A stretch of DNA of 52,255 nt from a virus. Taxonomy: Duplodnaviria; Caudoviricetes. Position 1 is the stretch's first letter. Each line of letters opens with the position of its first letter. Positions 9,364-41,831 of the stretch are shown in pieces. Under the pieces are notes generated by a model. It worked only from the letters and a program-made list of their open reading frames with translations. It did no database searches and had not been told where the DNA came from. Made by a program: the position numbers and the translations under genes. The stretch covers positions 1-52,255 of the IMG/VR virus record IMGVR_UViG_3300025154_000016. One strand, given 5' to 3'.

Positions 9364-10185
9364 TTAATCCTCCTCATACATCGAATCCAAATCTTCTTCG
9401 ACCCGTGGCGCTAAAAAGTATTGGATATACGATCCATTATCGATTTCCCCTTTCTGGATTTGATTATCGATTAAGAATTTCAAATGAATCGGACTTTCAG
9501 ATTTTAAGCGAATTGAGACTTGATCACAAATCGGACTAATCTTTAAGATATTCTTGAGGAATTGGATTGCGAACGCCCCTTCGGTATTTTCTTCAAATTT
9601 CGAGAGAATTAACTCTTCGGGTTCCACTTCATAACTCATATCGCCCATTGTGCCTTCTGCCCAAAGTCGTAATTGTTTCTCATTGGAATGAATATTCAAG
9701 ACATCAGAGAAAATCTCGGCGTCTTTAATCGCTTCGTCTAAAAGAGAGAGTTTAAAGGTGGCTGTATTCAAATAGGGAATTTCATCTAATTGTTCTAAAT
9801 CGATATTTTCTATTTCTAAATCGATTAATGCCATACTAAATTTCCGGGCTTTCTTTGATCCTTCAACTTGCATTTCAATACCTAATTTTTTATCTTTGGG
9901 GTCATGAATCAAACAGATTTCATCTTTCGGACTCCCTCGTTTAATGATTTTCACGAGATCATTGAGATTCAACCCTAATTGATACTCGTCATCGGTATCA
10001 AAGATGAGAAAATCTTCTTTTTTCAGATGACAATCAAGTAAACAAATATGGGAGCCATCCATGCCCGTAATTTGGAGTTCTTCTTTAGATATCATTAACC
10101 GTGTTTCGGTTAAGATGCCTTCGACTGCTTCGAATAAACCCTTCACAAATTTGGGATTGCTAAATTTTAGTTTAAAACCTTTCAT
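9364..10185 (-). CDS. pcn: Archaeal-type DNA sliding clamp (PCNA)
   Basis: Contains GMDGSHICLL, LGLNLNDLVKIIKR, KFSMALID, F..QFLKNILK and C-terminal YFLAPRVEE with an acidic tail. Confidence 0.95.
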   Translation of the reverse strand: MKGFKLKFSNPKFVKGLFEAVEGILTETRLMISKEELQITGMDGSHICLLDCHLKKEDFLIFDTDDEYQLGLNLNDLVKIIKRGSPKDEICLIHDPKDKKLGIEMQVEGSKKARKFSMALIDLEIENIDLEQLDEIPYLNTATFKLSLLDEAIKDAEIFSDVLNIHSNEKQLRLWAEGTMGDMSYEVEPEELILSKFEENTEGAFAIQFLKNILKISPICDQVSIRLKSESPIHLKFLIDNQIQKGEIDNGSYIQYFLAPRVEEDLDSMYEED

Positions 10186-10433: not shown

Positions 10434-11444
10434 TTATTCTTTATTTTTAAGTAAAAATTGGGGATCAACCGCTTTAAAACTGAGTCGTCCATCACAAGCC
10501 GAATCTGTTAATGTGCCATCTATGGCTCTTACGACAATTCCTTCTCGTAATACTGAAATATTTGAATTAACGACACTAAATCCATGTGCATATTCTAATA
10601 TCTCATCAACTGTTTGATCTAAATAATATTGATCATTTATAATTGGAACCATAGGTAATTCTAATTGATTACAAATCGATTTCATTGCGTCTAATGAAAG
10701 ATAGCGATGATTAGGAATATCATAGAGACTAAAGAAATGCATTTGATAATCAGTGAGTTTATATTTATTACCGCCAATTTTAGGACCAATACATTCGCCT
10801 TGAAGGGCTAACCCTTCTAATAATCGGTCTTCTAAATGATATTTCCAAGCCATTTTCCATTGAAAGGAATCTTCATTACAAACTAACTCTTGATTGCGAC
10901 TACAGACACCAAAAACACCTTGATATTTATAAAATGTTAAGGAAGTTCCATCGACTTTTTCTGTCACGTAAAAGGGTTCATCTTTCCATCGTTGTAAGAA
11001 AGTTGGAATTGTTTGAATTCGTACTTCATCTGTTTTTGGAATAAACGAAGGAAAAGATCCTTTTGCATTCGGATTGGATACCACATCAATAATGGGTTCC
11101 CATTTAGTGACACCTAATAATTCTGTTACATCTAACCCATTAACTAAATTGACATTAGATAATTCAGGAAATTTAGGATAAATCGGTAAGGCTAATCCTT
11201 GACTAATTTGACCTTTCATTTTGACGGTTCGTAAATGATGGCGATCTTCGGCTTTCGCATTTTCATTAATCCAACTTAATGGAATAACAGAATCGATTTC
11301 AATATAGAGACATAAATCTCCTTTTTTAAATTCTCCTTTTCGAGCGACTAAATCCCAACCTAATACTTTAAGTCGTTCGATTTTATCGGCATCTTGAATA
11401 GGTTGAACATCCAAGACTTCTTGAATACTGGCTAATTTTCGCAT
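10434..11444 (-). CDS. RNA ligase, DRB0094/Rnl5 family
   Basis: Has an MRKLASI N-terminus, motif I EKVDGTS, LQGEC, REGIV and SFKAV. Confidence 0.92.
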   Translation of the reverse strand: MRKLASIQEVLDVQPIQDADKIERLKVLGWDLVARKGEFKKGDLCLYIEIDSVIPLSWINENAKAEDRHHLRTVKMKGQISQGLALPIYPKFPELSNVNLVNGLDVTELLGVTKWEPIIDVVSNPNAKGSFPSFIPKTDEVRIQTIPTFLQRWKDEPFYVTEKVDGTSLTFYKYQGVFGVCSRNQELVCNEDSFQWKMAWKYHLEDRLLEGLALQGECIGPKIGGNKYKLTDYQMHFFSLYDIPNHRYLSLDAMKSICNQLELPMVPIINDQYYLDQTVDEILEYAHGFSVVNSNISVLREGIVVRAIDGTLTDSACDGRLSFKAVDPQFLLKNKE

Positions 11445-12826: not shown

Positions 12827-14305
12827 TTAATTCTCCGTTAAATCCGTAAATCCATCAAATAATAATTTCGAAATATCTTCGTCCGATGGGGGGGCTTCGG
12901 AAGTTTCTTTACCAAATTCTTTAACTTTGAGACAAATCCCTTGATAGATATAGGTTTTTTCCTGCCCAACTGTAATTGTTCGAACTCCATTTTGATGGAG
13001 ATATTGCCCGAAATATTTGACGGATAAAGGTTTCTCTTTCGAGACCGCCGATTCGCAATATTCACAATAGGCATCATATAACAAACTGGTGGGAATCGAT
13101 ACATCATCCCGTAATTCACACATATCCCGTAAGAACGAATAGACATTCGACGCATATTTCTGCCAAAAAGTTTTATTATAAGTTTCATCCAAATCTAATA
13201 ACCCCGTAAAATCCGAATAATTGGTAAACAAATAACAGATTAATTTTTCTCGTTCATATTCTAAAACATCTTGCTTCCGGGTTAAATCCTTATTATGAAT
13301 GTATGATTGATCGGAATACCAGCATTTCCATCGTCGACAAATTCCATCATCATAAGAATATAAGCGAGGAAGATAATTAGCCGTAACCCATAAATGATTC
13401 TTATTCTTCTTTTTGACGGGATGTCCAAATAACCGTCTTCCTGTAATATAAGATGTGGTGATTAAATGTTTTAAGCCTCCAATCACTTCCGATGCCCAAT
13501 ACGCCGACGATTCAATCTCATCACAATTCACAATCAAAGAATCTAAAATAATCCCATACATCACTTCCCGTTCGCGTTTGACAAACCCTAATGGATTATA
13601 ATCCACAAAATGATCTAATCCCACCATATTTTGAAGGATTTCCATTAATGTAGATTTCCCACAATTCGATCGACCTAATAATACAAACCCAATTTGATAG
13701 GTAATATTATTCGTTAAGGAATAACATATTGCCGTCAGAATCTCTTCTTGAATAACGGGATCATTCGGAAACATTTGAGCAACATGAAATAAGAATAAAA
13801 TTGGTTTCTCTTGCCAATCTGTGGTTTTTGGGATTTCATGAAAACAAAAATTAAACCCTTCTGTAAAATGATATGCTGAATTACAACCTGGTAAAAAACA
13901 CCGATGTTTGAGATCATAATATCCATTTTGAAACGGGACCAATTCAGTAGGAATATTGAGTTTTTCAATAGTGATCACATTCTTTTGTTTTAAGCGATTA
14001 TAAACTTCATTGCCATGTTTAATAAAAAATGTGTCGGGATACACTTTACTCCACCATTTTTCAACAATCGCGGTTACCTCTTCTTGGGTTTTGAGTTGAT
14101 AATAAGACCCATTAAAGAAATAGGTATCTCCATATAAAGTCGCCCATTTTTGCGTTCCAAAAATGGATGTTAACGCATCATTAATTTTAAACCCTAAGGA
14201 AACTTTCTGATTCCGAAGTGAACTATCACACGCTTGAAGAGCGGGATCATCATCAGCCCAAAATTCCGAAGCGGTTTGAAACGGACTTTCCACCATTTCA
14301 CTCAC
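12827..14305 (-). CDS. D5/P4-family SF3 DNA helicase (no primase domain evident)
   Basis: D5_N-like LVPFQNGYYDL, Walker A GRSNCGKST, Walker B IVNCDE, TANYLP, GICRRW, and a C-terminal winged helix (LYDAYCEYC...FGQYL). Confidence 0.9.
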   Translation of the reverse strand: MSEMVESPFQTASEFWADDDPALQACDSSLRNQKVSLGFKINDALTSIFGTQKWATLYGDTYFFNGSYYQLKTQEEVTAIVEKWWSKVYPDTFFIKHGNEVYNRLKQKNVITIEKLNIPTELVPFQNGYYDLKHRCFLPGCNSAYHFTEGFNFCFHEIPKTTDWQEKPILFLFHVAQMFPNDPVIQEEILTAICYSLTNNITYQIGFVLLGRSNCGKSTLMEILQNMVGLDHFVDYNPLGFVKREREVMYGIILDSLIVNCDEIESSAYWASEVIGGLKHLITTSYITGRRLFGHPVKKKNKNHLWVTANYLPRLYSYDDGICRRWKCWYSDQSYIHNKDLTRKQDVLEYEREKLICYLFTNYSDFTGLLDLDETYNKTFWQKYASNVYSFLRDMCELRDDVSIPTSLLYDAYCEYCESAVSKEKPLSVKYFGQYLHQNGVRTITVGQEKTYIYQGICLKVKEFGKETSEAPPSDEDISKLLFDGFTDLTEN

Positions 14306-17203: not shown

Positions 17204-17548
17204 ATGCAAACCCTTAAGAATGATCTTTTTCTCTATCCTCCTATGAATACTGACTCTATGAAAAAATCCCGGGCTAAATACAATTTAACCCATAAAAAAG
17301 AACGCGCTCAACATTCTCATGACATTCATCAACAAAAAAAAGCGCAAATTCATCAACAATATTATACAAATATCGCTTGTTCTCAATGTGGTGCAACGAA
17401 TAAACGAATTATTTATCATCACCTTGACCCAACCTCTAAACAACGTGATCCTATTACCGCTTTTCACCGTAATCATTTAGAAGAACTTTCTAATTGTATT
17501 CCACTCTGTTATTCTTGTCATCAAAAATTACATCATCAAAAAAAATAA
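17204..17548 (+). CDS. HNH endonuclease
   Basis: Contains CSQC...YHHLDP...NCIPLCYSCHQKLH and lies immediately upstream of the terminase. The true start may be 17243 or 17258. Confidence 0.85.
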   Translation: MQTLKNDLFLYPPMNTDSMKKSRAKYNLTHKKERAQHSHDIHQQKKAQIHQQYYTNIACSQCGATNKRIIYHHLDPTSKQRDPITAFHRNHLEELSNCIPLCYSCHQKLHHQKK

Positions 17549-17587: not shown

Positions 17588-19441
17588 ATGGTCAAGGGGA
17601 AAGTCACGGATGAGACCTTACGGGAAATCGCGAAATATGAAGGTTATCTCGCACAAGGTAAGACCATTATTGAAATGGGAGAAATTGAACACGTCCCCAA
17701 ACAAACCATTTCCTATAGGTTAAAGAAATTAGGACTAACCCCTAACAAAACCAAACAAGCTGAAGTGTCAAAAAAAGAGGTATTGGACAAGAAAAGTCAA
17801 AAAGAAAATTTAGACTCAATCAGTAAATCACGCCATAAAAATTCTCCTGGTTCAAATGATGAGAATAAACAATCTGATGAAATCATGGAGATCATCAAAA
17901 CAGCGATCTTAGAAGGAAAGGATATTCCACCTAATGTGTTATATCTAATCGCGGTGCAGAATTTCACGGCGAATCCTTCCCCGCAGTGGTTCTCCGCGTT
18001 GCAAACGTTTATGAAAGATAAAGAGAAAATCGCTAAAGCAGATAATAAAGAATCAAACAAACCGCTGGTCTATCTCCGTCCGCCCAAATTTCATGCGAAG
18101 CAGCACGAAGTCGTGGAAGCGATTAAAGATCCTCGCTATAAACTGATTTTTGTGGAAGGGTGTCAACGTTCCGGGAAGTCTACATCTGTGTTTGCAGGAT
18201 TACATGAATTGACATTGGAATCCCCCCGACCGTTACGAATTGCGTTGTTAGCGGGAAAAGGAGGAAAAAATGGGCGAGATGGGGGATCAAAGGGTATTTT
18301 AGCGGATGTTCTCCGGGACCCGATTTTAGATAAAGTCAATAAACAAGTGTTGGATTTGTCCTCCCGCACGAATGACACGATCAAATGGTATAATGGGTCT
18401 GAACTGGTCGCGATGGATCTCACGGTCGCTTCCATTAAAGGGGCGGATAAAGAAATCGTGTGGATTGATGAGTTAGATGTAGCGATTAGTGAAGGGAATG
18501 ATAAACGGGAAGCGGTCGTGTCTGCCGTCAATACTATGCTCGCCACATCCGATTTCAAATTAATTCTTTCTTCGAATTTGGATAAAGGGCTTTACCAAAT
18601 CTTACGAGACGAGATTTTCAAATTACAAGAAGAGTGTGTCTGTTCGATTTCTATTCGGAAAGAAGATTGCCCACACTTAAACAGAGAGGATATTGCTTCG
18701 AATTATCGGATTGCAAAAACTATGTCGGATGCTCTACTCGGAGAAGGCTTTGGGCAAATGCGACTCGAAGGAGAGATGACGGGGCAGGGGGATTGCTTCA
18801 ATTTCGCAGCCGTGAATGATGCGTTCGATCGTTATACTCTTTATATGAGTATTATCAATAACAAATTGCCACCCATAAGATTTATGGCGATTGATCCTTC
18901 CGGCACAGGACATCCCTTCGGAGTCTTTATCGGAGCCTACGATCCCGATAAGGACGAACACGTGGAGATTGAATCGTTTGAGATTCAGATGGGTGATCCC
19001 AATACGCGAATTCAAGAGAAATCGAGTCCCCAACGGATTAATGAACTACTTTTAACGAAATGTCGCGAGAACGGGATTAAAAAGGTAGTCATCGAGTCCA
19101 ATAGTGGGGGACAAGCGATTGCCATCTTTTTACGGAACTATGGAATACAAGTGATCGAGCAGAATTTTGGGGGCAAGCAGTGCTATAATTCTCGGGCTAA
19201 TTATGTGACGCTCGCAAACTATCTACTCGATAATCGGAAGATCGTGTTAAAGAACGACAAACTCAAATCGGAATTAATTATCTATAACCCGTCAATTAAT
19301 AAAGAAGAGTTTAAGGGGGACGTGGCGGATGCCTTCTTGCATTATTGTTGGATTGCCGTCGGTGGGATGACCTATTTAGCCAAAAAAGCCCGTCAATCCA
19401 ACAAATCCCCAACATACACGAAATCATTCTGTGTGGGATAA
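17588..19441 (+). CDS. terL: Terminase large subunit with an N-terminal HTH extension
   Basis: Walker A GCQRSGKST, Walker B IVWIDE, nuclease motifs AIDPSG, VVIESN and DVADA. The N-terminal HTH is GKTIIEMGEIEHVPKQTISYRLKKLG. Confidence 0.9.
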   Translation: MVKGKVTDETLREIAKYEGYLAQGKTIIEMGEIEHVPKQTISYRLKKLGLTPNKTKQAEVSKKEVLDKKSQKENLDSISKSRHKNSPGSNDENKQSDEIMEIIKTAILEGKDIPPNVLYLIAVQNFTANPSPQWFSALQTFMKDKEKIAKADNKESNKPLVYLRPPKFHAKQHEVVEAIKDPRYKLIFVEGCQRSGKSTSVFAGLHELTLESPRPLRIALLAGKGGKNGRDGGSKGILADVLRDPILDKVNKQVLDLSSRTNDTIKWYNGSELVAMDLTVASIKGADKEIVWIDELDVAISEGNDKREAVVSAVNTMLATSDFKLILSSNLDKGLYQILRDEIFKLQEECVCSISIRKEDCPHLNREDIASNYRIAKTMSDALLGEGFGQMRLEGEMTGQGDCFNFAAVNDAFDRYTLYMSIINNKLPPIRFMAIDPSGTGHPFGVFIGAYDPDKDEHVEIESFEIQMGDPNTRIQEKSSPQRINELLLTKCRENGIKKVVIESNSGGQAIAIFLRNYGIQVIEQNFGGKQCYNSRANYVTLANYLLDNRKIVLKNDKLKSELIIYNPSINKEEFKGDVADAFLHYCWIAVGGMTYLAKKARQSNKSPTYTKSFCVG

Positions 19442-19494
19442 ATTGTAAACCTTTTTAAATATAAGTACAATCTATTTAAGTAATGAAAATATAG

Positions 19495-22464
19495 GTGTTC
19501 TTCTTGGCCAAGAAAAATACACAAACCAAAGCCCTTACCGTTAAACGGAACGGGACTGTAAAGAGAAATGCCAACCCAGCGACGGGGTTAGACTTAACCG
19601 ACCAATATCAGTATTCTATGGGGCGGTATGTTGATCCGTTAATTCTCTATAAGATTCATAATAAAGCGAATGCCGAGATGCGAGAAGTGGTCGCCGAGGC
19701 TGATCCGATTGCGTCCGTGTTGACTCATCATTTCGCAGAATCCGCCAATACGAAAATGATTAAATTCTATGAATCGGATCAATTGGGGAGTCCTGAGATT
19801 CTACAAGATTTTCGATCAATGCTTAAACTGTTTAAATTCCAAGAGCATTGTAAAATGGTGATGCTCCGCGGGCAAACCCACGGTTGGTATATTGTGTATC
19901 CCTTTGTGGATGAGAATGGAATCCCGTTGTGTGAAATCTATAGCGAATATGAATGCAAAGCGGAATATATCAATTATGATCTTCAGAATAATATTCAGAC
20001 CTATCTCGTGCAATTTATTCCTCGCGTCGGATTTAGTCGCAATACCCATCTCCGACAAGTCCGTCGAATGTTCCAGAAAGACCAAGTAATTCATGGGACG
20101 AGAGGAACGTGGTGCTATGGGTTTGGGCATTCGATTCTGGAAGCGGCGTGGGATGCGATTACCAAACTCCGAGAAGAATCGCATACCAATGCCTTTAAAC
20201 AGAAGATCATGCCGTTTGTGCGAGTCCCGGACAATTGGGAAGATTCACAAATTGAAGATTTCATGAAAGCACTCTCTAAAATCGATCAAATGTCGGCGCT
20301 TGTGATGAAAGGGCATATTAATGAGAATACGGGGGAATATACTGATTTACCTGCAATTACATGGGCCACACCCGCGAATCAAACGCCCGCTAAACAGAGT
20401 CAAGGGTCTGGGGGATCGGTCTCTGATTTAAGTTCAGAATGGTCTCGTCTTACTGGTTCTACACGGAGAAGTGTTGCCTATTTCGTGGGTGGAGGAGCCA
20501 TTAGTGCTTCGCTCTCTGCCGCTGCCGTCGACTCGCTCGATGATGTGCAAGCCGATATCTCCGATTTTAACCAATATATCGATGAATTTATTGTGCCGTT
20601 CTGTAAATGGTTTGCCGAAGCCATCGGTTATAAATTACCAGAGACCTTTACGGTCAAAGGGTGGTGGGAATGGACCCGTGATGAAGCAGTTTACAATCAA
20701 CAACTCCAAACCCAACAACAACTTAAACAAGATGCAGAGACTCAAATTGAAGACGCTCAAAAAGAAAAGCGGAATTCGTATATTTTAGAGTATATTAAAG
20801 ATCAAGCATCGAAAGCGGATTTAACTCCGTTTGATCGGGAACTACAAGCCCGCTTAAATCAACGCATGAATGAATCTACCAAGCATCCCGATCAAATTTT
20901 AATGAGTGTTATCACCGAGATTACTCATGAAGCCTTAAATAATAGCGTCCAAACCGAATTAAGTAATTGTATCAAACAGAATATGAATATGCCGATGCAA
21001 GTCGTCGCTTCGTCGACTGTGAAAGGAGTCGGATTACAAGGATCAAAATTATTGGTGGAATTCCATAGCGGTACCAAATATAAAGGCGCCAAATATGCTT
21101 ACGAGTTAGGCGATAACGCCGAACAAGCGTGGTCCGATATGTTACAATCGACCTCGAAAGGAGGGTATGTCTGGGATAATTTGCGAGGAACCCAAATTGG
21201 GCCTGCATGGGGGACGGGCAATCCGACACCCGGAGGTACCACCGCATCGTTAGTCCCCTATGAAAAAACGGGACGGTTAGGACCGGGCTATATGGCGGGG
21301 TCTCGTCAAGAATATGAAAAGCAAGCGGCGGAATCCAAAGAATTCAAAGAAGAATCGTTAGGTGCGGATGGGAAAGCATTAGGGTCTAAACGATATGCTT
21401 ATCCCGAAGAACGCGGGTTTGAAAGTGGCCAACCTTCCGAGTTTTATACTGAAGAGCAAATGTATGGGGGACAAGGCCCTCAAACGGGAACTCCTTCAAT
21501 TTCCTCCGATAATACTACTGCAAATCCCGCTCAATCTGAACTCTCGATTACCGATTATCAAGGAATCGGAGATAACTTATCTACCAATACCCCTAAAAAA
21601 GAAGCCTATACTGCCGAATTCGTGTGGGGATCATCGAAAAATCCTCAAGGGTATGCCCAACGACCCAAAGGCATGAAAACGAAAACGGAAGCAAAAACAA
21701 CAGGAGTTGGGTTTGATTCGACTATCGACGGGAACTTTCCGTCGTTTTTTAATAGTTCGGTTATGAATCGCCGCAATATTGGAATCCAGATCGAGAAATT
21801 GGAAGATTTGCCACCCGCTGTGTTTATTCATCCACTTTTACAAGAGCATAATTCGATCTCTGGAATGCGTAAGAATCTTCATATCGGGTACGAGACGGCT
21901 CATAAACTTCTTGAACAAGATGATTTGAACGTCACTCGTTGTAATTTAGCAGCCGTGTCAACTGCTATGCATACAGCGAACCCCTTCTTATATAAAGTTG
22001 AAGGGGGATATCGGGCAGAATATATTTGTCCAGACTCGTTGAGACTGTTGGAGGGGGTCGAAGTGCCGTATGGACTATGGCATAACCTGGATGATGAGTC
22101 ATCTGCTGAATTACCCGAATGGCAAATTATCGGAACTTATAAAGTAGACCAGATTACGGGCGAGAAAGACCTATCAACTATTACGTATTTGGATAATTGG
22201 GAAGAAAAAGCGAATGAAGTCTTTACCAGACTGAAGGAAACTACCTATTATCAAGATCCGAAAGTCCAATGGTGGGTTGATAATTATATTGACAACGTCA
22301 AAAAAGGGATACATGGGGATGTGTCCACGGGAATTGTCACCGACGTGAAATACGACACAAAGCGAAATAAATGGATTCAAAAGAATATCAGACTGAAATC
22401 CGTTTCGGCAGTACCCATCGGAAACTGTACCAGACCGTTTTGCATGACCAAAGATAAAAAATAG
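19495..22464 (+). CDS. Portal protein fused to a KTSC-like domain and a C-terminal prohead protease
   Basis: Follows the terminase. The N-terminal ~410 aa are portal-like (RGQTHGW, YGFGHSILE). A KTSC pattern (SSTVKGVG...LLVEFHSG..Y.Y...SKGGYVWDNLR) and a protease-like C-terminus (VP..LWHN, DVSTG, SVSAVPIGNC) follow. The probable start is TTG at 19504. Confidence 0.75.
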   Translation: MFFLAKKNTQTKALTVKRNGTVKRNANPATGLDLTDQYQYSMGRYVDPLILYKIHNKANAEMREVVAEADPIASVLTHHFAESANTKMIKFYESDQLGSPEILQDFRSMLKLFKFQEHCKMVMLRGQTHGWYIVYPFVDENGIPLCEIYSEYECKAEYINYDLQNNIQTYLVQFIPRVGFSRNTHLRQVRRMFQKDQVIHGTRGTWCYGFGHSILEAAWDAITKLREESHTNAFKQKIMPFVRVPDNWEDSQIEDFMKALSKIDQMSALVMKGHINENTGEYTDLPAITWATPANQTPAKQSQGSGGSVSDLSSEWSRLTGSTRRSVAYFVGGGAISASLSAAAVDSLDDVQADISDFNQYIDEFIVPFCKWFAEAIGYKLPETFTVKGWWEWTRDEAVYNQQLQTQQQLKQDAETQIEDAQKEKRNSYILEYIKDQASKADLTPFDRELQARLNQRMNESTKHPDQILMSVITEITHEALNNSVQTELSNCIKQNMNMPMQVVASSTVKGVGLQGSKLLVEFHSGTKYKGAKYAYELGDNAEQAWSDMLQSTSKGGYVWDNLRGTQIGPAWGTGNPTPGGTTASLVPYEKTGRLGPGYMAGSRQEYEKQAAESKEFKEESLGADGKALGSKRYAYPEERGFESGQPSEFYTEEQMYGGQGPQTGTPSISSDNTTANPAQSELSITDYQGIGDNLSTNTPKKEAYTAEFVWGSSKNPQGYAQRPKGMKTKTEAKTTGVGFDSTIDGNFPSFFNSSVMNRRNIGIQIEKLEDLPPAVFIHPLLQEHNSISGMRKNLHIGYETAHKLLEQDDLNVTRCNLAAVSTAMHTANPFLYKVEGGYRAEYICPDSLRLLEGVEVPYGLWHNLDDESSAELPEWQIIGTYKVDQITGEKDLSTITYLDNWEEKANEVFTRLKETTYYQDPKVQWWVDNYIDNVKKGIHGDVSTGIVTDVKYDTKRNKWIQKNIRLKSVSAVPIGNCTRPFCMTKDKK

Positions 22465-22590
22465 TCCAGACTAATTTGTCGGCAGTCTACCTTAGTCTGA
22501 TAAGTCTGGCTTTAAATACATGGGCTTAAATAGCCGTTTTTTTTATATTTAATCAATTAAGGTCTATTTAAAGATCTTATAATTGATAAG

Positions 22591-23052
22591 GTGTGTCTCC
22601 TTTTGAAAAAGAAAGTCAAAAAAATGGTTGACGGCGTTGAACAAGAAGTCGAAGTCGATGTCGAAGACGAAGAGAAACGCAACGAATTACCTGACGGCTT
22701 ATTTGCCAAACGAATGATTTTAATGAAATCGGGGAATATGTCCGAAGAAGAAGTCAATCGGTGCAATAGTCTGAAAGATGCCGATGCGTTAATTGAATAT
22801 TATGGGTTAGCAAAGCAAAATAAAGCCCCCGAACCCGAACATAAAGGATCTGTGAGTGGTATTTCGCTTTTACCAAAAACAACCAATCCCGATCCCCGCA
22901 AACAATCCAATCAACGATTGAATAACGAACCCGAAGCCTATTCTGCTGAAGAATTGCTTGATCCGTTAGCAACCGCTGATAGTCGATTGAATCGGTATAT
23001 GGATAGTCCCGAAGTGCGGTTTATCCGCAATCCCGAAGGGAGGCTAATCTAA
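22591..23052 (+). CDS. Capsid scaffold-like protein
   Basis: A charged 153-aa protein between the protease and the decoration/capsid genes. Confidence 0.6.
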   Translation: MCLLLKKKVKKMVDGVEQEVEVDVEDEEKRNELPDGLFAKRMILMKSGNMSEEEVNRCNSLKDADALIEYYGLAKQNKAPEPEHKGSVSGISLLPKTTNPDPRKQSNQRLNNEPEAYSAEELLDPLATADSRLNRYMDSPEVRFIRNPEGRLI

Positions 23053-23053
23053 A

Positions 23054-23521
23054 ATGACTGCGAAAACAGCCGCATCTCATGTGGGTCCAACCATTTGTGT
23101 CTCTCGGAATTATAAAGCCGAATGGGGAGAACTCGCCGATGCGTATTATCCCGGAACTTTAGTGTATGAATCTGCACCGGGGATTTGGACTGCTGCGACT
23201 ACATCCGCAGGAAATTTAAACCGTGTAGGAATTGTGGGATTTAAAGCCCGCGTTGATTCGAATTTTGCTCGTAAAGATATTGATGATGCCTATTCAGCGG
23301 GTGATTCTGTCGAAATTATCGGCACTGGAGTGTGTACTGCTCGTATTGGAGATTTGAATGCAACGGCACTTCGAGGAGTCCGATTAACTTATTCTGCATC
23401 TGCGGGAATTTTCGCATTAATGGCCGCCACTGAAATCTGTTTAGCCACCGTGCATGAACCCGTTGCAGATAACGATACTTATCTCCGTGTCCGCTTAGAA
23501 GGCACGGGTTGGAGGGATTAA
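23054..23521 (+). CDS. Head decoration/cement protein
   Basis: Ala/Gly-rich, 155 aa, directly before the MCP, with PGTLV and IDDAYSAGDSVEI beta-tulip-like patterns. Confidence 0.7.
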   Translation: MTAKTAASHVGPTICVSRNYKAEWGELADAYYPGTLVYESAPGIWTAATTSAGNLNRVGIVGFKARVDSNFARKDIDDAYSAGDSVEIIGTGVCTARIGDLNATALRGVRLTYSASAGIFALMAATEICLATVHEPVADNDTYLRVRLEGTGWRD

Positions 23522-23522
23522 A

Positions 23523-24662
23523 ATGGCACTCAAAAAAATTAATGTTGCGTATGAAAATTCGAATTTTTATTCGAACTTAGATGATAAAGATAAAGCATTA
23601 GTCGACAAAGGAGTCAGTCGTGTTAATGCTCAAATCATGAATGTCCGTAAAAACGGATTACCCGATGCTTATATCGGGAAAGGCAAACAAATGGCCGAAC
23701 GGTTAAACGCTAATCCATCCTATCTTACCGATGAAGCGGTTTATGCTCTTGATTCGGTTATTGCGATGACGGTTGAAGACCAGAATATGTATGGGGAAAT
23801 CATAGCCCCCGTAACCACCCCGCAAAGCGGAGTGAAGTGGTATAACAAATCCTATAAACTCGATGAATTGGATGTCAATAATGCTAAAACATGGCCACAT
23901 CCCGACAAGACCTTTAAAGATGTCGTGCAGTTTGGCTTAGGTGTCGAACCCGAGCAAGCGGAAGGGATGGGGTTCTCCATTGGATATGAAATTCCGTGGA
24001 CAGAAATCGCTGAAAGTGGGGGGTCTATTTATAGTCCTGATTTCTTCTATGCACTCAAAGCGGCAGAACGGATGGGAGTCATTATCGATGAAAACGGATT
24101 CCTTGGGGGACTCGGTGAACACATGTATTATGATTTCGGACTCAAAGGTCTCTTGAATCATGCATCGGCTCAAACCTTTACGACTTCAACTTTAACAACT
24201 TATGGAAATCTCCGATCGGGTCTTTGGAACGGGTTAGGGGATTTGAAAAAGCAATATGCTCCGGGCGAAACTGTATTGGTCATGAGTTCGGGAATTGCAT
24301 CCCAATTGTTCTATAACCGATTTACTTATCACGACACACCCGAATATGATTCGATTGCGAAAGAATTGCGACCGTTTATTTCCCGTGCGTATGTCGATGA
24401 TCGAATTATCGGTGCTACCGCAACCAACGCCAATCAAAAATGGGCTTTAATCAAGATTGGACGCACACTCCAATCTCGGAAATTGGTCTATCCTCTCCAA
24501 ACCAAGCCCCGCATGGATAAAACCTACGCTGAAGATATTAAAGAAGTCTTGATTCATGGGGATGTGTTAGCCCAATATGGACAATCACCTTTCCCAGTGA
24601 CTGTTAGTGCTTCGTTAACAACCACCGATACCGGGTATATCCCGAACGGAAGACTGTGGTAA
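23523..24662 (+). CDS. Major capsid protein (HK97 fold)
   Basis: 379 aa in the expected position. Contains IGYEIPWTEI, AAERMG...DENGFLG and GLKGLLN, typical of DUF2184/linocin-like capsids. Followed by a T-run. Confidence 0.85.
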   Translation: MALKKINVAYENSNFYSNLDDKDKALVDKGVSRVNAQIMNVRKNGLPDAYIGKGKQMAERLNANPSYLTDEAVYALDSVIAMTVEDQNMYGEIIAPVTTPQSGVKWYNKSYKLDELDVNNAKTWPHPDKTFKDVVQFGLGVEPEQAEGMGFSIGYEIPWTEIAESGGSIYSPDFFYALKAAERMGVIIDENGFLGGLGEHMYYDFGLKGLLNHASAQTFTTSTLTTYGNLRSGLWNGLGDLKKQYAPGETVLVMSSGIASQLFYNRFTYHDTPEYDSIAKELRPFISRAYVDDRIIGATATNANQKWALIKIGRTLQSRKLVYPLQTKPRMDKTYAEDIKEVLIHGDVLAQYGQSPFPVTVSASLTTTDTGYIPNGRLW

Positions 24663-24679
24663 TCTTTCTTCTTTTTTTT
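24663..24679 (+). terminator. Oligo-T (archaeal-type) terminator after the MCP
   Basis: TCTTTCTTCTTTTTTTT directly after the stop codon. Confidence 0.6.
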
Positions 24680-24828
24680 ATTAACTCATCTAAAATCCCT
24701 TTGACAAATGTTCAATTCATTTGGGGATTGTTCCGATAGCGGTCACGGACACCAAATAAACCCGCTGCTATGTTTGTACCTCCACGGAGGCTAAATGCAA
24801 TGAAAAACAACACAATAGGTGATCGCTA

Positions 24829-27800
24829 ATGGCAGCGGGAGCGAAATGTAAAGTCCGATTATTTGAACCGTCATCCGAATATGTTAAAAAATCCAAATGT
24901 TTTCAAGATATCATGCAACTCGGAGTCGGGTTTAGTAATACGCTTCATTTATTTGAACTCGAATATGGAGCTTCGTTTAGTAACGGCTTAACAGAAATCT
25001 CAGCGCCCAATGCGGTCTTTAATGGCACGGCAACCAGTGTCCCGTTAGGGATCGTATCTTCCAATGCTGCCGATGATAAAGATAGTACCGCGGTGCAAAA
25101 GGTCAAAGTCATTAGTCTTGATAGTAATGGCGAACCCGATATCACCGAATATACCATGGAAGGCACAACTGCTGTGCCAATTGACACGTATCCCGAACGA
25201 TTGATGCATATGTATAGCACACAATGGGGAGCGGATACCGATGCAACGGGCAATATTATTCTCGCTCGACGAGGCTATCATCAACTCGCAACACCCGCAG
25301 ATATTACGGGCGATACCGAAACGGGCTTAACTGCCAATACTTTATATTATTTTAAAGTCAACATTAACGGCGCTGGGGTGTTAGAATATTATATAACCGT
25401 CACGACTGCATCATGCACATTTGCGACGCTTTTAACTTTATTGGCAGCTGCAAAAGCGGTCGTTGGGGGAGCCACCATTAGTGGAGTGACTTGGTCATTA
25501 GAAAGTGGGGATTTACGATGTACATCCAATTCGACTTTAGATACCGCTTCAATTGCGATTACTGCCGGAACCACTGGCACAGATTTATTAGCTTCGTTAA
25601 CTGGGTTTAGTTCGGTCGATACTGCCGTTGGGTCGGGGTATCAAGAAATTGGTTTAACGGGGATTACGGGTGCGTCTGAAACAGGACTCACACCACAAGC
25701 GGAATATTATTTTACGATTGATATCGATGGCGCGGGTGCAGTCGAATACTATATAACCACTTCTACCGTAGCCGTCACGTTTGATCAATTAATTAGCTTG
25801 TTAAATTCGGCGATTTTAGAATCTGATGATGTCACTGTCATCTCCGGGGTAACCTTTTCCTTAACGGGAGGGGATATTCGTTGCACTTCGAGTTCGACTG
25901 CGACCACCGCATCTATTGATATTACCGCAGGATCAACGGGAACGGATCTATTAGCATCGTTAACGGGATTTACAGCGGTCGATGCAGAAGTCGAAAGTGG
26001 GTATCAAGAGATCGGGTTAACGGGTAAAACCGAATCAACAGAAACGGGTTTAACTCCCAGCACATTATATTATTTTACCTTAACGCTTAATGGAGGAGCT
26101 GCAACCGAATATTATATAACGACAACTACCGTAGCGGTTACTTTTACCCAATTATTAGTGTTACTTGCCGCAGCCAAAAAAGTGTCAGATGATGCGGCAA
26201 TTAGCGGGATTACCTTTAGTTTATCGGGAGGAGATTTAGTTGCTACTTCCAATGAACGGGGAGCCACATCAGCAGTTTTAATTGCAGCGGGAACTACGGG
26301 TACCGATTTGTTAGCAACATTAACGGATTTCTCTGCAATGGATGCTGCGGCCTATATTGCCTATCAAGAAGTGGGATTAAGTGGAAAAGAAACTGAAAAT
26401 CTCACGGGATTATTAGCAACCTCGCAATATTATTTTAAAATTAACGTAGATGGCGCGGGTGTCACAGAATTTGATATAACGACTTCTACCGATTTATCGT
26501 TTACTGCGATTATTGCGTTAATGAATACTGCCACCACATCTGCCGCCACATGGTCATTAACAGGAGGCGATCTCCGATGCACTTCCGATGCGGTTGATGG
26601 TACTGGTTCAATTGCTCTCTCTGCGGGAACTACGGGAGATGATCTCTTTGCACAATTAACGGGATGGTCTACCTTTGATACCGCACAATATATCGGCTAT
26701 CAAGAGTTTGGACTTTCTGGTAAAACTGGAAGCACTGCCACGGGATTAACCACCACATCCACATATTATTATAAAATCAATATTGATGGTGCGGGTGAAG
26801 CGGAAGAATCTATCATCGTAACAGCTGGATCAACCCTCTTTTCTGATATAATTACCTTATTAGATGCGGGAATAAGCGGAGCGGCATTTACAATTGTAGG
26901 GGGAGATCTCCGATGTACCTCTGCGGATACAACGGCTTCGGCAGCGATTGCTCTCTCTATTACGGCTTTAAGTGGCACTTCGTTGTTTGAATCAATGACG
27001 GGATTTAGTGCGTTAGAAACCGCTAAAGGTTCTGCTTATCAAGAATTTGGATTAAGCGGCAAAACGGGCACCGATGCGACCGGATTAACTGCCGTGCAAA
27101 CCTATTATTATAAAGCGAATGTGGATGGAACGGGAGTCGCCGAAAAAAACTTTAATGTCACCGCGGGATCAACAACCTTTACTGATATAATGACTGCCTT
27201 AAATGCTTCCATTGCGGGAGCGGTCTGGTCTGTTACGGGTGGAGATTTACGATTAACATCATCAACATCCATCGCAACCTCAGCCATAGCCTTAAGTTAT
27301 GCATCCTTAACGGGAGCATCCTTTATTGAAGGCTTAACGGGTTTTAGTGCCTTAGAAACTGCGGCTGGGATTGGCTACCAAGAATTTGGACTTACAGGTA
27401 AAACCACCACTACCGAAACGGGCTTAACCGCATCAAATACCTATTATTTCAAAGTGAATGTGAATGGTGCGGGAGTTGTGGAATACGATATAACAGTCGA
27501 TACGACAACCGATACCACTTACGATGGCATAATTGCGTTAATGAATGCAGCATTAACAACAGGTGCAGTGGGGGCTGAATTTGGCTATCCCGATCTTAAA
27601 CTCCGTTGCACTTCTGATAGTGCTGCGGCAGCATCTGCAATTGCGTTAAGTGCGGGATCGACGGGATTAGATCTTTTTGCAACCTTAACGGGTTGGACCG
27701 CGTTTGAATCCGCAGTAGCATATGAATTGTATTTAACCATTGCTGCGGGAGCAAATGAATCCGACGGAGCGGCGTTATGGGTTCCCGAAGATTGGAATAT

Positions 27801-28110
27801 GAGTATTCGAGAGTTAATCTTGAGTCCGACTTCCTACGCCGCCGTTGCACGAGCGGTCGAAGTGAAAGCCGCCCGCACATATATGGATGGTATTGGCGCT
27901 GATCCCGATTTTAGTTATGAGATTATTCGGGTAGCCGCTGAATCAACATCTACCGCGGAAAATCCATGTCGAATACGGAATGCGGATGCCAATGCTAAAT
28001 TAACCTTTTCAGAGACCTACCTCGGTGGGGCGATGGATGGCTTTTTTCATGCCGTTGTGGCGATCTTTGATCCAACCAATACGGGCAGAGGAATAGATAC
28101 ACGGAGTTGA
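24829..28110 (+). CDS. Large virion fibre-like protein with seven ~115-125-aa repeats
   Basis: Thr/Gly/Ala-rich. The repeat consensus is YQE.GL.GKT...TGLT....YYFK.N.DGAG..E...GGDLRCTS...TG.DL...LTGF. AGGTGA SD. Confidence 0.8.
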   Translation: MAAGAKCKVRLFEPSSEYVKKSKCFQDIMQLGVGFSNTLHLFELEYGASFSNGLTEISAPNAVFNGTATSVPLGIVSSNAADDKDSTAVQKVKVISLDSNGEPDITEYTMEGTTAVPIDTYPERLMHMYSTQWGADTDATGNIILARRGYHQLATPADITGDTETGLTANTLYYFKVNINGAGVLEYYITVTTASCTFATLLTLLAAAKAVVGGATISGVTWSLESGDLRCTSNSTLDTASIAITAGTTGTDLLASLTGFSSVDTAVGSGYQEIGLTGITGASETGLTPQAEYYFTIDIDGAGAVEYYITTSTVAVTFDQLISLLNSAILESDDVTVISGVTFSLTGGDIRCTSSSTATTASIDITAGSTGTDLLASLTGFTAVDAEVESGYQEIGLTGKTESTETGLTPSTLYYFTLTLNGGAATEYYITTTTVAVTFTQLLVLLAAAKKVSDDAAISGITFSLSGGDLVATSNERGATSAVLIAAGTTGTDLLATLTDFSAMDAAAYIAYQEVGLSGKETENLTGLLATSQYYFKINVDGAGVTEFDITTSTDLSFTAIIALMNTATTSAATWSLTGGDLRCTSDAVDGTGSIALSAGTTGDDLFAQLTGWSTFDTAQYIGYQEFGLSGKTGSTATGLTTTSTYYYKINIDGAGEAEESIIVTAGSTLFSDIITLLDAGISGAAFTIVGGDLRCTSADTTASAAIALSITALSGTSLFESMTGFSALETAKGSAYQEFGLSGKTGTDATGLTAVQTYYYKANVDGTGVAEKNFNVTAGSTTFTDIMTALNASIAGAVWSVTGGDLRLTSSTSIATSAIALSYASLTGASFIEGLTGFSALETAAGIGYQEFGLTGKTTTTETGLTASNTYYFKVNVNGAGVVEYDITVDTTTDTTYDGIIALMNAALTTGAVGAEFGYPDLKLRCTSDSAAAASAIALSAGSTGLDLFATLTGWTAFESAVAYELYLTIAAGANESDGAALWVPEDWNMSIRELILSPTSYAAVARAVEVKAARTYMDGIGADPDFSYEIIRVAAESTSTAENPCRIRNADANAKLTFSETYLGGAMDGFFHAVVAIFDPTNTGRGIDTRS

Positions 28111-28691
28111 ACAATATGAATCACGGACAAGTTAAACAATTTGAGACCCTGTTAAATCAAGGGGATTTTTCACGTGCGCTCATATTACTCGACAAAATTA
28201 AAACGGATTTGGATCGAAGTAATGTGCGCCGTCGAACTGAGCTGAAAAACATGGAGCAGTTGTTAATCATTCAAGCAGAACAACGAGCAATGCAAGACAA
28301 AATCATGGCAGATGTGCAAAAAGACCATGATACCTTGAAGGAAACATGGGAATATTGCAAAGGACAATTAGCCACCGATAAAAATAAAACCAAAGCCCAA
28401 AATTTAGTGAATGAAGCCGAATATGCACTTAAGGCTCTTAATAAACCCAAATTAGAAGCAATGGATAAACAATTAGAGCAAATTTTGCTTTTAGATCCTT
28501 CGAAAGCGGAATGGGCGGCGAAATTTAAACTCACAGTTGAAAAGATTTTAGGGATTGTGTCGGTTGCTCATCAAACTGATCCTGCGGTGAAAGCTCGGAT
28601 TGAAGCCAAAAAAGAAGTGATTGATCCGAATAAAACCCAACCTCGCAAGAAAAAGGTCCTCAAGACTATCGAAATGGAAGTGGATGAATAA
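28107..28691 (+). CDS. Coiled-coil hypothetical protein in the morphogenesis module
   Basis: 194 aa, helical and charged. Confidence 0.65.
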   Translation: MNNMNHGQVKQFETLLNQGDFSRALILLDKIKTDLDRSNVRRRTELKNMEQLLIIQAEQRAMQDKIMADVQKDHDTLKETWEYCKGQLATDKNKTKAQNLVNEAEYALKALNKPKLEAMDKQLEQILLLDPSKAEWAAKFKLTVEKILGIVSVAHQTDPAVKARIEAKKEVIDPNKTQPRKKKVLKTIEMEVDE

Positions 28692-28724
28692 TCCTTTTTT
28701 TCTCTATAAAGGAGTGGAATACTT

Positions 28725-29150
28725 ATGACCTATGCATCCGTGTCTGAAGTCAAAAACCGATTGTTAAATGCCAATTTAGGGGTAAGTACAAGTATTGTGT
28801 GTACCGATACTGAAATTGCGGATTTACTCACCGAAGCGGATGATATGCTCAATTTTGAGTTAGAAATTACCACCAATACAACCAACGCTTCCTTTACACC
28901 GATTCTCAAAAAAATTGCAATTGATTTAGTGTCTATGTCAATTCTCCGAGGTCGGCATTATAAAGAAACCACGACCGAAGTGAATGTGGAACGTTATTAT
29001 ACCATTACTCCTGATTTTACCCGGGAACATATGCGACGATTACGGCGAATTCGCGAGCGATTACGGGGAGGAAATAATGTTTGGGTGTTTAATACCGCAA
29101 CGGGATTAGAAGTTGATAAAAATGCATCCAATTGGGGAGGGTATTATTAA
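28725..29150 (+). CDS. Head-tail adaptor protein
   Basis: Pattern MTYASVSEVK...LLTEADDMLN...ILKKIAIDL, plus its position. Confidence 0.75.
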   Translation: MTYASVSEVKNRLLNANLGVSTSIVCTDTEIADLLTEADDMLNFELEITTNTTNASFTPILKKIAIDLVSMSILRGRHYKETTTEVNVERYYTITPDFTREHMRRLRRIRERLRGGNNVWVFNTATGLEVDKNASNWGGYY

Positions 29151-29860
29151 TGGTGGATTTTAGTGAACTCTCTACAGAACTCAATGCGAGTTGGCATCAT
29201 GATTTTCCGATTACAGGAACCGAAGATTTGAGCGCGGGGCATAATTGTAGTGTCGATACTCATAATTTTGGGATTTCATATGATGGAGGTGCTGTTGCAA
29301 CAATAACATTAGACCAAAATTATACTTTAGCCACATTAATTACCGCGTTACAAACCAAAATTGATGCGGGTATTGGGTCCAGTTTAGTGACCGTATCTTC
29401 GACATCATCAATGTATATTACCTTTGAATTAATCGGTGGACATTATATTACCTTAAGTGCGGGTGCATTAGACTTTTTAGTCGTGATGGGTATAACTGCG
29501 GGAACTTATCATGCGACCATTGCCGAACCGACCTTTTTAGACGGGTCCCTTATTAAAGCCACCAAATATGTCGATACCCAAGTCATTATCGATATCAACG
29601 GGGATATCAATTTAGGCCCTCGTGCAACAAACAATACCTTACAAATGCGATCTCAATTTTTTACCATTAATATTCCCGCATCTTCTCGTTCTAATTTAGA
29701 ACAATTAGTTGGGGAAACCCGACGGATTATTTTAGCTAAAGCGATCAGCGGAGGAATGTGGAAAGTGAATAAAATTAATAATGTCAAAAAAGCAACCATG
29801 TTGCAAGCGGATTTATATTGTGAAGAAGTAAAACTCATAGCAAGTAGTGGATGGGATTAA
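29150..29860 (+). CDS. Putative neck/tail-completion protein with an inserted beta module
   Basis: Lies between the adaptor and the tail tube, with TAATG coupling. The C-terminal SRSNLEQLVGETRRII resembles tail terminators. Confidence 0.55.
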   Translation: MVDFSELSTELNASWHHDFPITGTEDLSAGHNCSVDTHNFGISYDGGAVATITLDQNYTLATLITALQTKIDAGIGSSLVTVSSTSSMYITFELIGGHYITLSAGALDFLVVMGITAGTYHATIAEPTFLDGSLIKATKYVDTQVIIDINGDINLGPRATNNTLQMRSQFFTINIPASSRSNLEQLVGETRRIILAKAISGGMWKVNKINNVKKATMLQADLYCEEVKLIASSGWD

Positions 29861-30807
29861 TCATGACCGATTCAGTCGTCTTACATACAAGTACAACCAA
29901 AGTGGGATGGTCGACCGAGACCAATTATGCGGGAGGCGTAGCGGGTGTCAAATATGCGTGTACGCAAATTGCAAACGATGCTTCCCTAACTGCATTAAAT
30001 CTTCAAAAAGAAGATTTAAATTTAGGGTTTGCCGAAGTCGAACGGGTACAAATCAAACCAGCAACCGCCGCACCCGATACCAAATTTATTCTCAATAAAG
30101 GATATCGATATAAAGAATTTACTATTTCGCAATATGTCCAGAATGAAACATGGGCTGCGCAAGCGGGTGCAACCATTACTCCCGGCACATTACCGACATC
30201 TTATTGTTTCCATTGTGAATTATTAGGGGTAAATGGAGTGATTGATTATTTCGATATCTTTGGTTGTGTGTTAATTAATTATGAACTCGATCAATCCGAA
30301 AGCGATTTTCCAACAGAGAAATTAACGTTCTCATATTATGATGTCAAAGATGGGGTTGCTCATTCAACCTTAGCAGGTTGGCTTGCGACTGCACCTTCTA
30401 CCCATAAAGATATTGGGTTATCAATTGATGCCGAAGCGGTGTTAAGCGTGTTAAAGAGTAATCTTAAAATTACCATCAATACTTTGGATAAAATGGTTGC
30501 CACGAAATACCAACGCTTTGATCCGCATATTATGAGTCGGGATGTCGATTTAGAAGCGACCTTTTACGCCAATCAAACCGTAGAAAAATCTGTGGTGGGG
30601 GATGAGTTGGCATTAGGGGGAACCTTAACTGCGTTAAATGAAGTTGCAATTGCCTATACTTACAATTCCGCTTCAGCGAATCTTTCTGCGTCTAAAATGT
30701 ATGTGGAAACCTCTTCAATTGGGAAGATTCCCGCAGAAATGGGTATTTATGAAATTAGTGTCACGATGAAATCGGGAACCGCAAACGTTGTTGCTCATAA
30801 TACATAG
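29851..30807 (+). CDS. Major tail tube protein
   Basis: 318 aa, beta-rich, with N-terminal KVGWSTETNYAG, followed by a chaperone pair and the tape measure gene. The probable start is 29863. Confidence 0.7.
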   Translation: MGLIMTDSVVLHTSTTKVGWSTETNYAGGVAGVKYACTQIANDASLTALNLQKEDLNLGFAEVERVQIKPATAAPDTKFILNKGYRYKEFTISQYVQNETWAAQAGATITPGTLPTSYCFHCELLGVNGVIDYFDIFGCVLINYELDQSESDFPTEKLTFSYYDVKDGVAHSTLAGWLATAPSTHKDIGLSIDAEAVLSVLKSNLKITINTLDKMVATKYQRFDPHIMSRDVDLEATFYANQTVEKSVVGDELALGGTLTALNEVAIAYTYNSASANLSASKMYVETSSIGKIPAEMGIYEISVTMKSGTANVVAHNT

Positions 30808-32659: not shown

Positions 32660-33150
32660 TGACCGATTATGATTCAACAGTGTATGGAATTTGTATTTCC
32701 ACATCGATTACGGGTTCGGGAACCACTGCGTATCCCGCGGGGGATCGAATGTTTTTTATAACCGATAAAATTAATGGGAATGAAACCTTTCTCCAGAAAA
32801 TTAAAGAAGTTGCGGGAGGCAATTCTTATTCGAATAAAGACGGTAAACGCACATGTATTATAACTTTAGGGGATTGTCCTATTGTAAGCGGGTCTTCTGT
32901 CTTTAATACAATGATTCCGAAATTGAAGGATGAACACCGAGCGGGGCAAGGGGTCTTATATTTTTGGATTAAAACCTTAAGTAGTGGCGCACCGAATTGG
33001 GGTGCTGCTGCAAATACATTATATATTGGATATACGGCAGCGGGAGCAGAAACCAACTATATGAGTGGGTATTGCACGACTTTCAAATGGGAAATCGAAG
33101 GGAATTTATATTGGATTAAAAGTTTGAGTTTTAAGGAGTGTTTGGTTTGA
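32659..33150 (+). CDS. Putative distal tail protein
   Basis: A beta-rich protein directly after the tape measure gene, with TAATG coupling. Confidence 0.5.
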   Translation: MTDYDSTVYGICISTSITGSGTTAYPAGDRMFFITDKINGNETFLQKIKEVAGGNSYSNKDGKRTCIITLGDCPIVSGSSVFNTMIPKLKDEHRAGQGVLYFWIKTLSSGAPNWGAAANTLYIGYTAAGAETNYMSGYCTTFKWEIEGNLYWIKSLSFKECLV

Positions 33151-41812: not shown

Positions 41813-41831
41813 ACCTTATAAATTATAAGGT
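41813..41831. promoter_or_regulatory. Palindromic operator-like site ACCTTATA-AAT-TATAAGGT
   Basis: Perfect 8-bp arms, with a related palindrome ACCTTAT-T-ATAAGGT at 41774-41788. Confidence 0.7.

Follow-up and report, generated by a model that had tools for sequence, protein, structure and literature searches.

Can a tailed virus build its prohead protease into its portal protein, and what would such an arrangement mean for the delivery and dose of the enzyme? The question is raised by a gene at 19495-22464 of IMG/VR record IMGVR_UViG_3300025154_000016 (Duplodnaviria; Caudoviricetes), which we analyzed at its full length of 52,255 bases and refer to as the window. The record has direct terminal repeats and is estimated to be 100% complete. 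Maturation proteases normally get into the procapsid through scaffold-like tails or because they are fused with a scaffold or capsid protein, and to our knowledge the determinants of their copy number are poorly understood. We found that this gene almost certainly encodes a portal, a KTSC-like and a prohead-protease-like domain in a single chain. The parts of the gene, as assigned by AlphaFold2 (AF2) models, Foldseek and hidden Markov models (HMMs), are as follows:

19495-22464, plus strand: open frame of the fused portal / KTSC-like / protease gene, likely 19504-22464, with the stop TAG at 22462-22464
19627-20754, plus strand: portal domain, residues ~45-420 (AF2 and Foldseek)
20755-20979, plus strand: long helices after the portal core, residues 421-495 (AF2 helices 421-439, 445-460 and 465-495)
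20986-21189, plus strand: KTSC-like domain, residues 498-565, four strands then two helices (AF2)
21190-21294, plus strand: conserved Gly/Pro-rich motif after KTSC, GPAWGTGNPTPGGTTASLVPY..., residues 566-600 ('postK' HMM)
21295-21801, plus strand: linker, residues 601-769, one helix (604-620) and then a disordered Gly/Ser/Thr/Pro-rich stretch
21607-21699, plus strand: conserved linear motif in the linker, ..FVWGSSKNPQGYAQRPKGMKTKTEAKT, residues ~705-735 (regular expression)
21814-21912, plus strand: small helical element before the protease domain, residues 774-806, confident in the C-terminal AF2 model
21922-22461, plus strand: prohead-protease-like domain, residues 810-989 (AF2 and Foldseek)
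22081-22083 and 22324-22326: His863 (LWHN) and Ser944 (DVSTG)
22027-22029, 22426-22428 and 22441-22443: Cys845, Cys978 and Cys983, nearly invariant, the last two in a terminal GNCxxxxC motif

An earlier note on this DNA had described a single uninterrupted frame of 989 amino acids (aa), and the frame proved to be continuous. The listing of open reading frames (ORFs) gave one ORF of 989 codons from GTG 19495, and its translation contained no internal stop. In sequencing run X2, positions 19400-22600 lay on one contig (8,564 bases) that showed 0 differences and 0 gaps and had a word depth of ~52; as X2 could be the source sample, its contig is counted as non-independent support. Short contigs from runs X5, X6 and X8 (two other studies) covered 23, 20 and 18 of 30 bins, respectively, with substitutions only and no indels. 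The sequencing runs were labeled as groundwater and soil metagenomes, and no RNA run carrying the sequence was among them. The X2 contig and the indel-free runs together indicate that the frame is not an assembly artefact, and the stop codons that assembly errors might have hidden, a concern raised in the earlier note, were not seen. The independent assemblies of relatives displayed the identical continuous architecture. As for the start codon, AGGTG lies 7 nt upstream of TTG 19504, the product from there begins MAKKNTQ..., and the aligned relatives begin with MAKK, MGKK or MVKSK. This spacing and these N-termini make TTG 19504 a likelier start than GTG 19495, and it is probably the true one. 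An inverted repeat with a T run lies just past the stop, at 22465-22560, and looks terminator-like by eye.

The N-terminal part of the modeled protein has a portal fold. The whole-protein AF2 model, built on a 56-sequence alignment, had a mean predicted local distance difference test score (pLDDT) of 75.8 and was ordered at residues 45-240, 310-565 and 770-989, with values mostly between 85 and 97 in the portal region. When this model was compared to the PDB with Foldseek, 87 matches were obtained at E<=1e-3 and the best 50 were all portal proteins. The best match was 9yin/Sf11 (E 1.1e-7), and the portals of the archaeal virus HFTV1 (8qsy, 2.4e-6), G20c, T4, lambda and HK97 were also found, with template modeling (TM) scores normalised to the target of up to 0.55. 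The fold ends near nt 20754, in agreement with the boundary of about 20750 that had been proposed. By sequence, the whole fused protein had no meaningful match in Pfam or PHROGs, phmmer against the PDB gave 0 matches, and a tblastn search of 50,697 phage records was likewise empty. The helical linkers expected after the portal were seen as the three AF2 helices of residues 421-495, a Gln/Glu-rich region that differs in length among the relatives.

The C-terminal part, residues 810-989, has in our model the HK97/DUF2213/assemblin-type prohead protease fold. An AF2 model of residues 770-989 from a 75-sequence alignment reached a pLDDT of 90.1 and a predicted TM score of 0.85. In the PDB, Foldseek ranks 1-3 were the chains of T4 gp21 (5jbl; E 2.4e-3, probability 1.0, target TM 0.52), followed by the herpesvirus proteases (assemblins). 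The BFVD search gave 29 matches at E<=1e-3, with a 'putative prohead protease' of phage POR1 at the top (1.6e-6); the list also included DUF2213 proteins, COG3740 head maturation proteases and the prohead protease of the haloarchaeal virus HSTV-2 (8.9e-4), and the ChaoS9 prohead protease came just beyond it at 1.2e-3. A protease-like domain carrying the LWHN and DVSTG motifs, as the earlier note had put it, was therefore found where it had been placed. We also looked at the conservation of this domain, which is covered by 74 of the 75 aligned sequences, the exception being an 86-aa fragment. Y833, E842, G880, S944, Q962, V973, C978 and C983 were present in 74/74 and C845 in 70/74, and Ser944 sits in a D/P-x-S-T motif. 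A His occupied the 863 column in 54/75 sequences, the column otherwise holding E, D, R, S, P, Y, C or V, while 20/75 had a His 4-8 residues downstream instead, in an xHGG or HGD motif. With the 54 at the column, the 20 shifted and Ser944 in all 74, a His-then-Ser pair is universal in the covered sequences, and to judge from the alignment this pair is as expected for the prohead protease class. One of 22 relatives also matched phrog_530 (head maturation protease) at 4e-6. A C-terminal family profile run against PDB sequences found 0 matches at E<=10.

Between these two domains lies the module that had been proposed to be KTSC-like at about 20989-21189; the AF2 model, a sub-threshold PF13619 match and a profile match to 7x8c_A placed it at 20986-21189. 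The isolated segment matched Pfam KTSC (PF13619) with an E-value of 0.0064 and 16.6 bits, below the cut-off of 25 bits, and PF13619 gave no match on the whole fused protein. In the PDB, the family profile matched almost all of 7x8c_A (chain residues 4-64; E 0.0013), which is named a 'KTSC domain-containing protein', and more weakly 4rgi_A (E 0.034); the remaining 10 of the 12 listed profile matches were Gln-rich, low-complexity ones to the helical region. Among 58 proteins that bear the module, 4 matched PF13619 (best 1.2e-8), and 4 gave weak ATLF-family matches as a side observation. We read segment 498-565 as a genuine but divergent KTSC domain.

The Gly/Pro motif that follows accompanies the KTSC module in both portal and non-portal proteins, with the pattern GP..G.G.PT.GGT.AS..PY, and G565 and G580 are invariant across the 58 module sequences. 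The KTSC and Gly/Pro module also occurs as a separate head-module gene, at 1589-2080 of viral contig L003, 5401-6468 of L005 and 5347-6480 of L009. The gene order in L003 was portal (phrog_533, 7.3e-60), a 163-aa KTSC protein, scaffold and major head protein, whereas in L005 and L009 the module lies in proteins of 355 and 377 aa downstream of the large terminase. This repeated placement suggests that the module acts in head assembly or the head interior. The earlier note took single-stranded nucleic acid to be the ligand of KTSC domains, which is not established: a passage of PMC9503650 has DNA binding as a prediction, and a passage of PMC8541194 gives the function of KTSC as unknown, possibly RNA-binding.

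The long Gly/Ser/Thr-rich linker that had been noticed was disordered, with pLDDT <50 at residues 646-763, and its length was highly variable among relatives. The ~31-residue motif within it was found in 8 of 154 other proteins, all of the close subfamily, and was duplicated in 4; it may, as a speculation, be a docking or cleavage site. The helical element at 774-806 resembles FtsK_gamma (E 0.022) and NUMOD1 (in relative P0069, E 4.9e-4), both weakly.

A search for the same architecture had been proposed, and it showed that the portal-protease fusion, as read from the domain matches, is a family trait. A word-index search gave 10 relatives of 825-1638 aa outside the protein's own cluster, and an exhaustive profile search gave 159 proteins at E<=1e-3, the best 150 of which were carried forward. 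Domain HMMs from alignment A1 were then run on 154 proteins, with the query and an identical representative excluded; ten of the 154 were A1 members and match by construction. The proteins were distributed as follows:

54 of 154, 437-1638 aa: portal and C-terminal domain in one chain, with KTSC also detected in 32
25 of 154, 62-727 aa: portal without the C-terminal domain, 23 of them <=534 aa
24 of 154, 86-825 aa: C-terminal domain without the portal
50 of 154, 217-1733 aa: KTSC module only
1 of 154: post-KTSC motif as the sole HMM match

Many of the 24 C-terminal-only proteins resemble gene-call fragments; P0092, for example, starts within the end of the portal. A word-index search for shorter proteins with the C-terminal domain gave one match, of 410 aa on a 1,342-base contig, which was probably cut. 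P0033 (458 aa), the one portal-only case traced to its locus, was rejected as a fragment, since a 96%-identical locus (L013) runs off the contig end and in the 83%-identical L014 the portal, KTSC and C-terminal domains share an ORF of 893 aa. P0033 and P0052 were sought in viral contigs and were not found there. Pfam on ten distant relatives gave just weak NUMOD1, ATLF and DnaJ matches below the cut-offs.

We compared the gene to known systems. The first likeness was to Halorubrum virus BJ1 (Graaviviridae, an archaeal tailed virus), in which a portal bearing a C-terminal KTSC is followed by a prohead protease and then by an ORF in the capsid position. BJ1 ORF50 (651 aa) matched Phage_portal PF04860 at 1e-19 and KTSC PF13619 at 9.4e-12 over residues 559-620; ORF52 (447 aa) matched an XkdF-type protease domain at 8.8e-27, and ORF53 (360 aa) holds the capsid position. 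The window gene looks like a union of ORF50 with the protease portion of ORF52. It differs in that BJ1 encodes its protease on its own, in a gene of 447 aa whose protease domain is N-terminal, and in that the BJ1 domains exceed Pfam thresholds whereas those of the window do not. The KTSC regions of the two aligned with SKGGYVWDNLR opposite SHGGYHYDNIR (E 0.0026, low probability), and no similarity of the two portal sequences was detectable outside KTSC. That such parts are usually separate genes, as the earlier note had said, is borne out by the BJ1 portal-KTSC and XkdF protease genes and by the four separate head genes of L003.

The second likeness was to polyvalent proteins, which according to passages of Iyer et al. 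(2017; PMC5512222) have 2-15 domains per chain, are packaged by means of a virion domain (portal or MuF), frequently include a peptidase for processing, and as portal or MuF fusions carry further domains into the capsid; the same passages report them to be scarce in archaea. The window chain resembles them, as far as those passages describe the group, in holding portal, KTSC-like and C-terminal assemblin-fold domains. It differs from what they describe in that the KTSC-like domain is its only cargo and in that the peptidase is apparently the sole prohead protease of the virus. We detected no conflict-related effector enzyme domain between portal and protease. The text passages of PMC5512222 make no mention of KTSC or of a direct portal-peptidase protein.

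The third comparison was to HK97 gp4, T4 gp21, DUF2213, XkdF and herpesvirus assemblin, with which the domain shares a matching fold, the His-then-Ser order and a place in the head gene module. Those proteases are free or fused to a scaffold or capsid protein and enter via scaffold-like tails. The window domain is unlike them in being hung on the portal, in having no sequence-model match and in having three conserved cysteines. Portal fusions and C-terminal assemblin-like peptidases are thus already known from polyvalent proteins (in the passages of PMC5512222), and portal-KTSC is already known from the cultured archaeal virus BJ1. Neither a protein that joins portal, KTSC and protease nor a sole maturation protease borne on the portal turned up in our literature searches, which for polyvalent proteins took in running text.

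We then considered whether the genome has another source of the protease. A six-frame search of the complete 52,255-base genome with PF04586, PF09979, PF14550, PF03420, PF00574, PF01343 and phrog_530 found nothing, while the family's own C-terminal profile found exactly one copy. By these searches the fused domain is apparently the only recognisable prohead protease of the genome. No in-frame start with a Shine-Dalgarno-like GGAG/GGTG-type motif was found ahead of the protease domain. Such a motif was present at 12 of the 21 gene starts listed for the window. The genes around the fused gene are:

17588-19441, plus strand: presumed large terminase, 617 aa, from position and size alone (a 603-aa ORF lies at the same place in L002)
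22591-23052, plus strand: possible scaffolding protein, 153 aa, acidic, from position alone, without a family match (position and sequence conserved in L002)
23054-23521, plus strand: 155-aa protein with weak head-decoration / minor capsid resemblance (phrog_766, E 4.2e-4; PF23982 XM1_gp53, E 3.7e-4, sub-cut-off)
23523-24662, plus strand: major capsid protein candidate, 379 aa (language-model similarity 0.98 to PF09950 Major_capside / DUF6260 clusters)

For the 617-aa ORF, nothing was found in Pfam or PHROGs and nothing meaningful among PDB sequences, and the 379-aa capsid candidate had no Pfam or PHROG match. No propeptide or cleavage motif was found in the capsid candidate. Relative L002 (48,964 bases) repeats the gene order of the window: its ORFs of 603, 1176 (fused), 155, 162 and 388 aa and a long ORF correspond to ORFs of 617, 989, 153, 155, 379 and 1093 aa in the window. 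The 1093-aa ORF (24829-28110, plus strand) comes right after the capsid gene, keeps its position in L002 (11929-15516) and gave weak sub-threshold PhoD_N and Pur_ac_phosph_N matches; an FN3-like fold is suspected. Directly upstream of the presumed terminase is an HNH endonuclease gene (17204-17548, plus strand; PHROG 6.2e-8, Pfam HNH 1.6e-4), and HNH-terminase pairing is common in cos-type phages.

Elsewhere in the window, the G+C content is 0.40-0.45 in the structural module (18001-30000) and 0.29-0.36 in the replication and other modules, with a sharp step. A PCNA-type sliding clamp is encoded at 9364-10185 on the minus strand (PCNA_N, 7.7e-16), and its nearest solved structures are archaeal clamps (~1e-25 vs ~1e-16 for most eukaryotic ones). 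This resemblance alone hints at an archaeal host. A provirus scan with the family alignment over 185,579 species genomes found none, and no tRNA genes were found in the genome. The window also encodes an RNA ligase that carries a PHA02142 OB domain (9.1e-29; 10434-11444, minus strand) and a D5/DUF5906-type primase-helicase (12827-14305, minus strand). A Mom-family protein (5.3e-35; 41823-42545, minus strand) and an N6/N4 DNA methylase (9.2e-14; 43730-44431, plus strand) indicate that the virus probably modifies its own DNA. A 1062-aa ORF (33138-36326, plus strand) with a sialidase-like carbohydrate-binding module (9.3e-8) followed by a terminal C1q domain (3.4e-8) is likely the receptor-binding fibre.

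What would a portal of this kind do? Portal C-termini face the capsid interior, on the crown side. The extension of ~560 residues beyond the portal core comprises the helices, the KTSC domain with its Gly/Pro motif, a disordered tether of ~150 residues and the predicted serine protease domain. In T4, according to passages of PMC9958956, the portal nucleates core and shell assembly and tolerates bulky C-terminal fusions to green fluorescent protein (GFP) at about half of its twelve positions. Interior-facing C-termini on a portal that is also the assembly nucleus would put twelve KTSC modules and twelve tethered proteases inside each procapsid, and the protease would need no separate targeting signal. 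By our estimate (~0.35 nm per residue), the tether could span several tens of nm. The protease may then degrade the scaffold and/or trim capsid proteins, and would probably cut itself free within the linker. Catalysis, substrates, self-release, location inside the head and the part played by the KTSC module are what we infer, and we consider it probable, with some reserve, that the domain is an active capsid maturation protease delivered by the portal tether. The earlier note proposed that the portal brings the protease and a nucleic-acid-binding cargo into the prohead in numbers set by its own stoichiometry. As to delivery, this is reasonable, because the extension is C-terminal and the searches gave no second protease and no internal start. 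That the chain is a head polyprotein, as the note also had it, is not supported as regards processing.

A bolder version of this delivery model can be offered only tentatively, and we hold it to be somewhat doubtful. It supposes that the family, comprising at least 54 cluster representatives and probably with archaeal hosts as judged from the PCNA-type clamp, gave up a free maturation protease and built its sole protease into the portal at exactly twelve copies per procapsid. A tether with a contour length of ~50 nm (estimate) would let the enzymes sweep the interior of a capsid for a 52-kb genome, and the KTSC domain would stay on the portal crown after self-release, holding the DNA end.

Several results weigh against an active, portal-delivered and sole protease. 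None of the protease, portal and KTSC models of Pfam and PHROGs was above threshold on the fused protein, and for the portal family there was no match at E<=1 (Pfam) or E<=0.01 (PHROGs); since the Pfam thresholds were not reached, it is fold together with transitive sequence links that places the three domains in their families. The PDB fold search with the protease domain gave nothing at E<=1e-3. When the family profile was aligned to HK97 gp4 and T4 gp21 with hhalign, the result was not significant (probability <=0.1%), so the equivalence of the His and Ser to known catalytic residues is not demonstrated. The three conserved cysteines are atypical of HK97-type proteases, and on sequence grounds they could form, with His863, a metal site rather than an active site. 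Because the fused domain is itself missed by the Pfam and PHROG models, the claim of a sole protease rests mainly on the single-copy profile result. Finally, twelve copies is lower than the ~55 copies of gp21 reported for T4 proheads in passages of PMC9958956.

The alternative that survives best, which we nevertheless consider unlikely, is a peptidase that acts in cis only, cutting just its own chain (to free the KTSC domain or itself) while the capsid matures without general proteolysis. Protease-less phages whose capsid matures in this manner exist. The low dose relative to T4 and the capsid candidate without a detected propeptide or cleavage motif would fit such an enzyme, and passages of Iyer et al. 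(2017; PMC5512222) read the C-terminal assemblin-like peptidases of polyvalent proteins as enzymes that process these proteins during assembly. On the other hand, the gene occupies the position of the BJ1 maturation protease between portal and capsid genes, the acidic 153-aa scaffold-like ORF that follows would need removal, and a disordered tether of ~150 residues looks like reach, which would favor substrates beyond the chain itself.

It is less probable still that the protease fold is a non-catalytic module with a structural, scaffold-like or metal-binding role, in which His863 and Cys845/978/983 bind zinc. The near invariance of the cysteines, which could by their conservation mark a metal site or a disulfide, the His that is off its fixed column in 20/75 sequences and the lack of a match to any active-protease sequence model would all be in keeping with this role. 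Ser944 is however invariant (74/74) in its D/P-x-S-T motif and the same loop always holds a His, both of which argue for catalysis; the hhalign alignment to gp21, not significant as noted, also sets Ser944 on the Ser of the gp21 GVSS motif.

A slightly weaker candidate again is that translation from an internal start yields the protease in a free form as well, in which case the fusion would not fix its copy number. In-frame ATGs are present at residues 757 and 791, and if the host is archaeal, Shine-Dalgarno-independent initiation is possible. Neither ATG has a GGAG/GGTG-type motif, as against 12 of the 21 listed gene starts, and the 24 C-terminal-only proteins (86-825 aa), which might have represented such products, include many apparent gene-call fragments. 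Last, an assembly or sequencing artefact joining separate genes is, as far as contigs can tell, practically dismissed by the 52x contig with its 0 differences, by the three further runs free of indels, by the 54 independent cluster representatives that share the fusion and by the continuous frames of 1176 and 893 aa in L002 and L014.

Delivery of an active maturation protease by the portal thus remains our preferred reading. At the level of architecture, the finding extends the haloarchaeal portal-KTSC fusion and the polyvalent "portal as carrier" idea to a deeply divergent family. This family is left wholly unannotated by current Pfam and PHROG models, and our alignments could seed new ones. 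If a portal-borne sole protease is true, the dose of the enzyme would be fixed at twelve and sited at the assembly nucleus. The family would then provide a natural test of targeting by a covalent tether as opposed to a scaffold-binding tail, and a simple system for addressing the minimal number of proteases, the timing of their activation and the clearing of the portal channel before DNA packaging.

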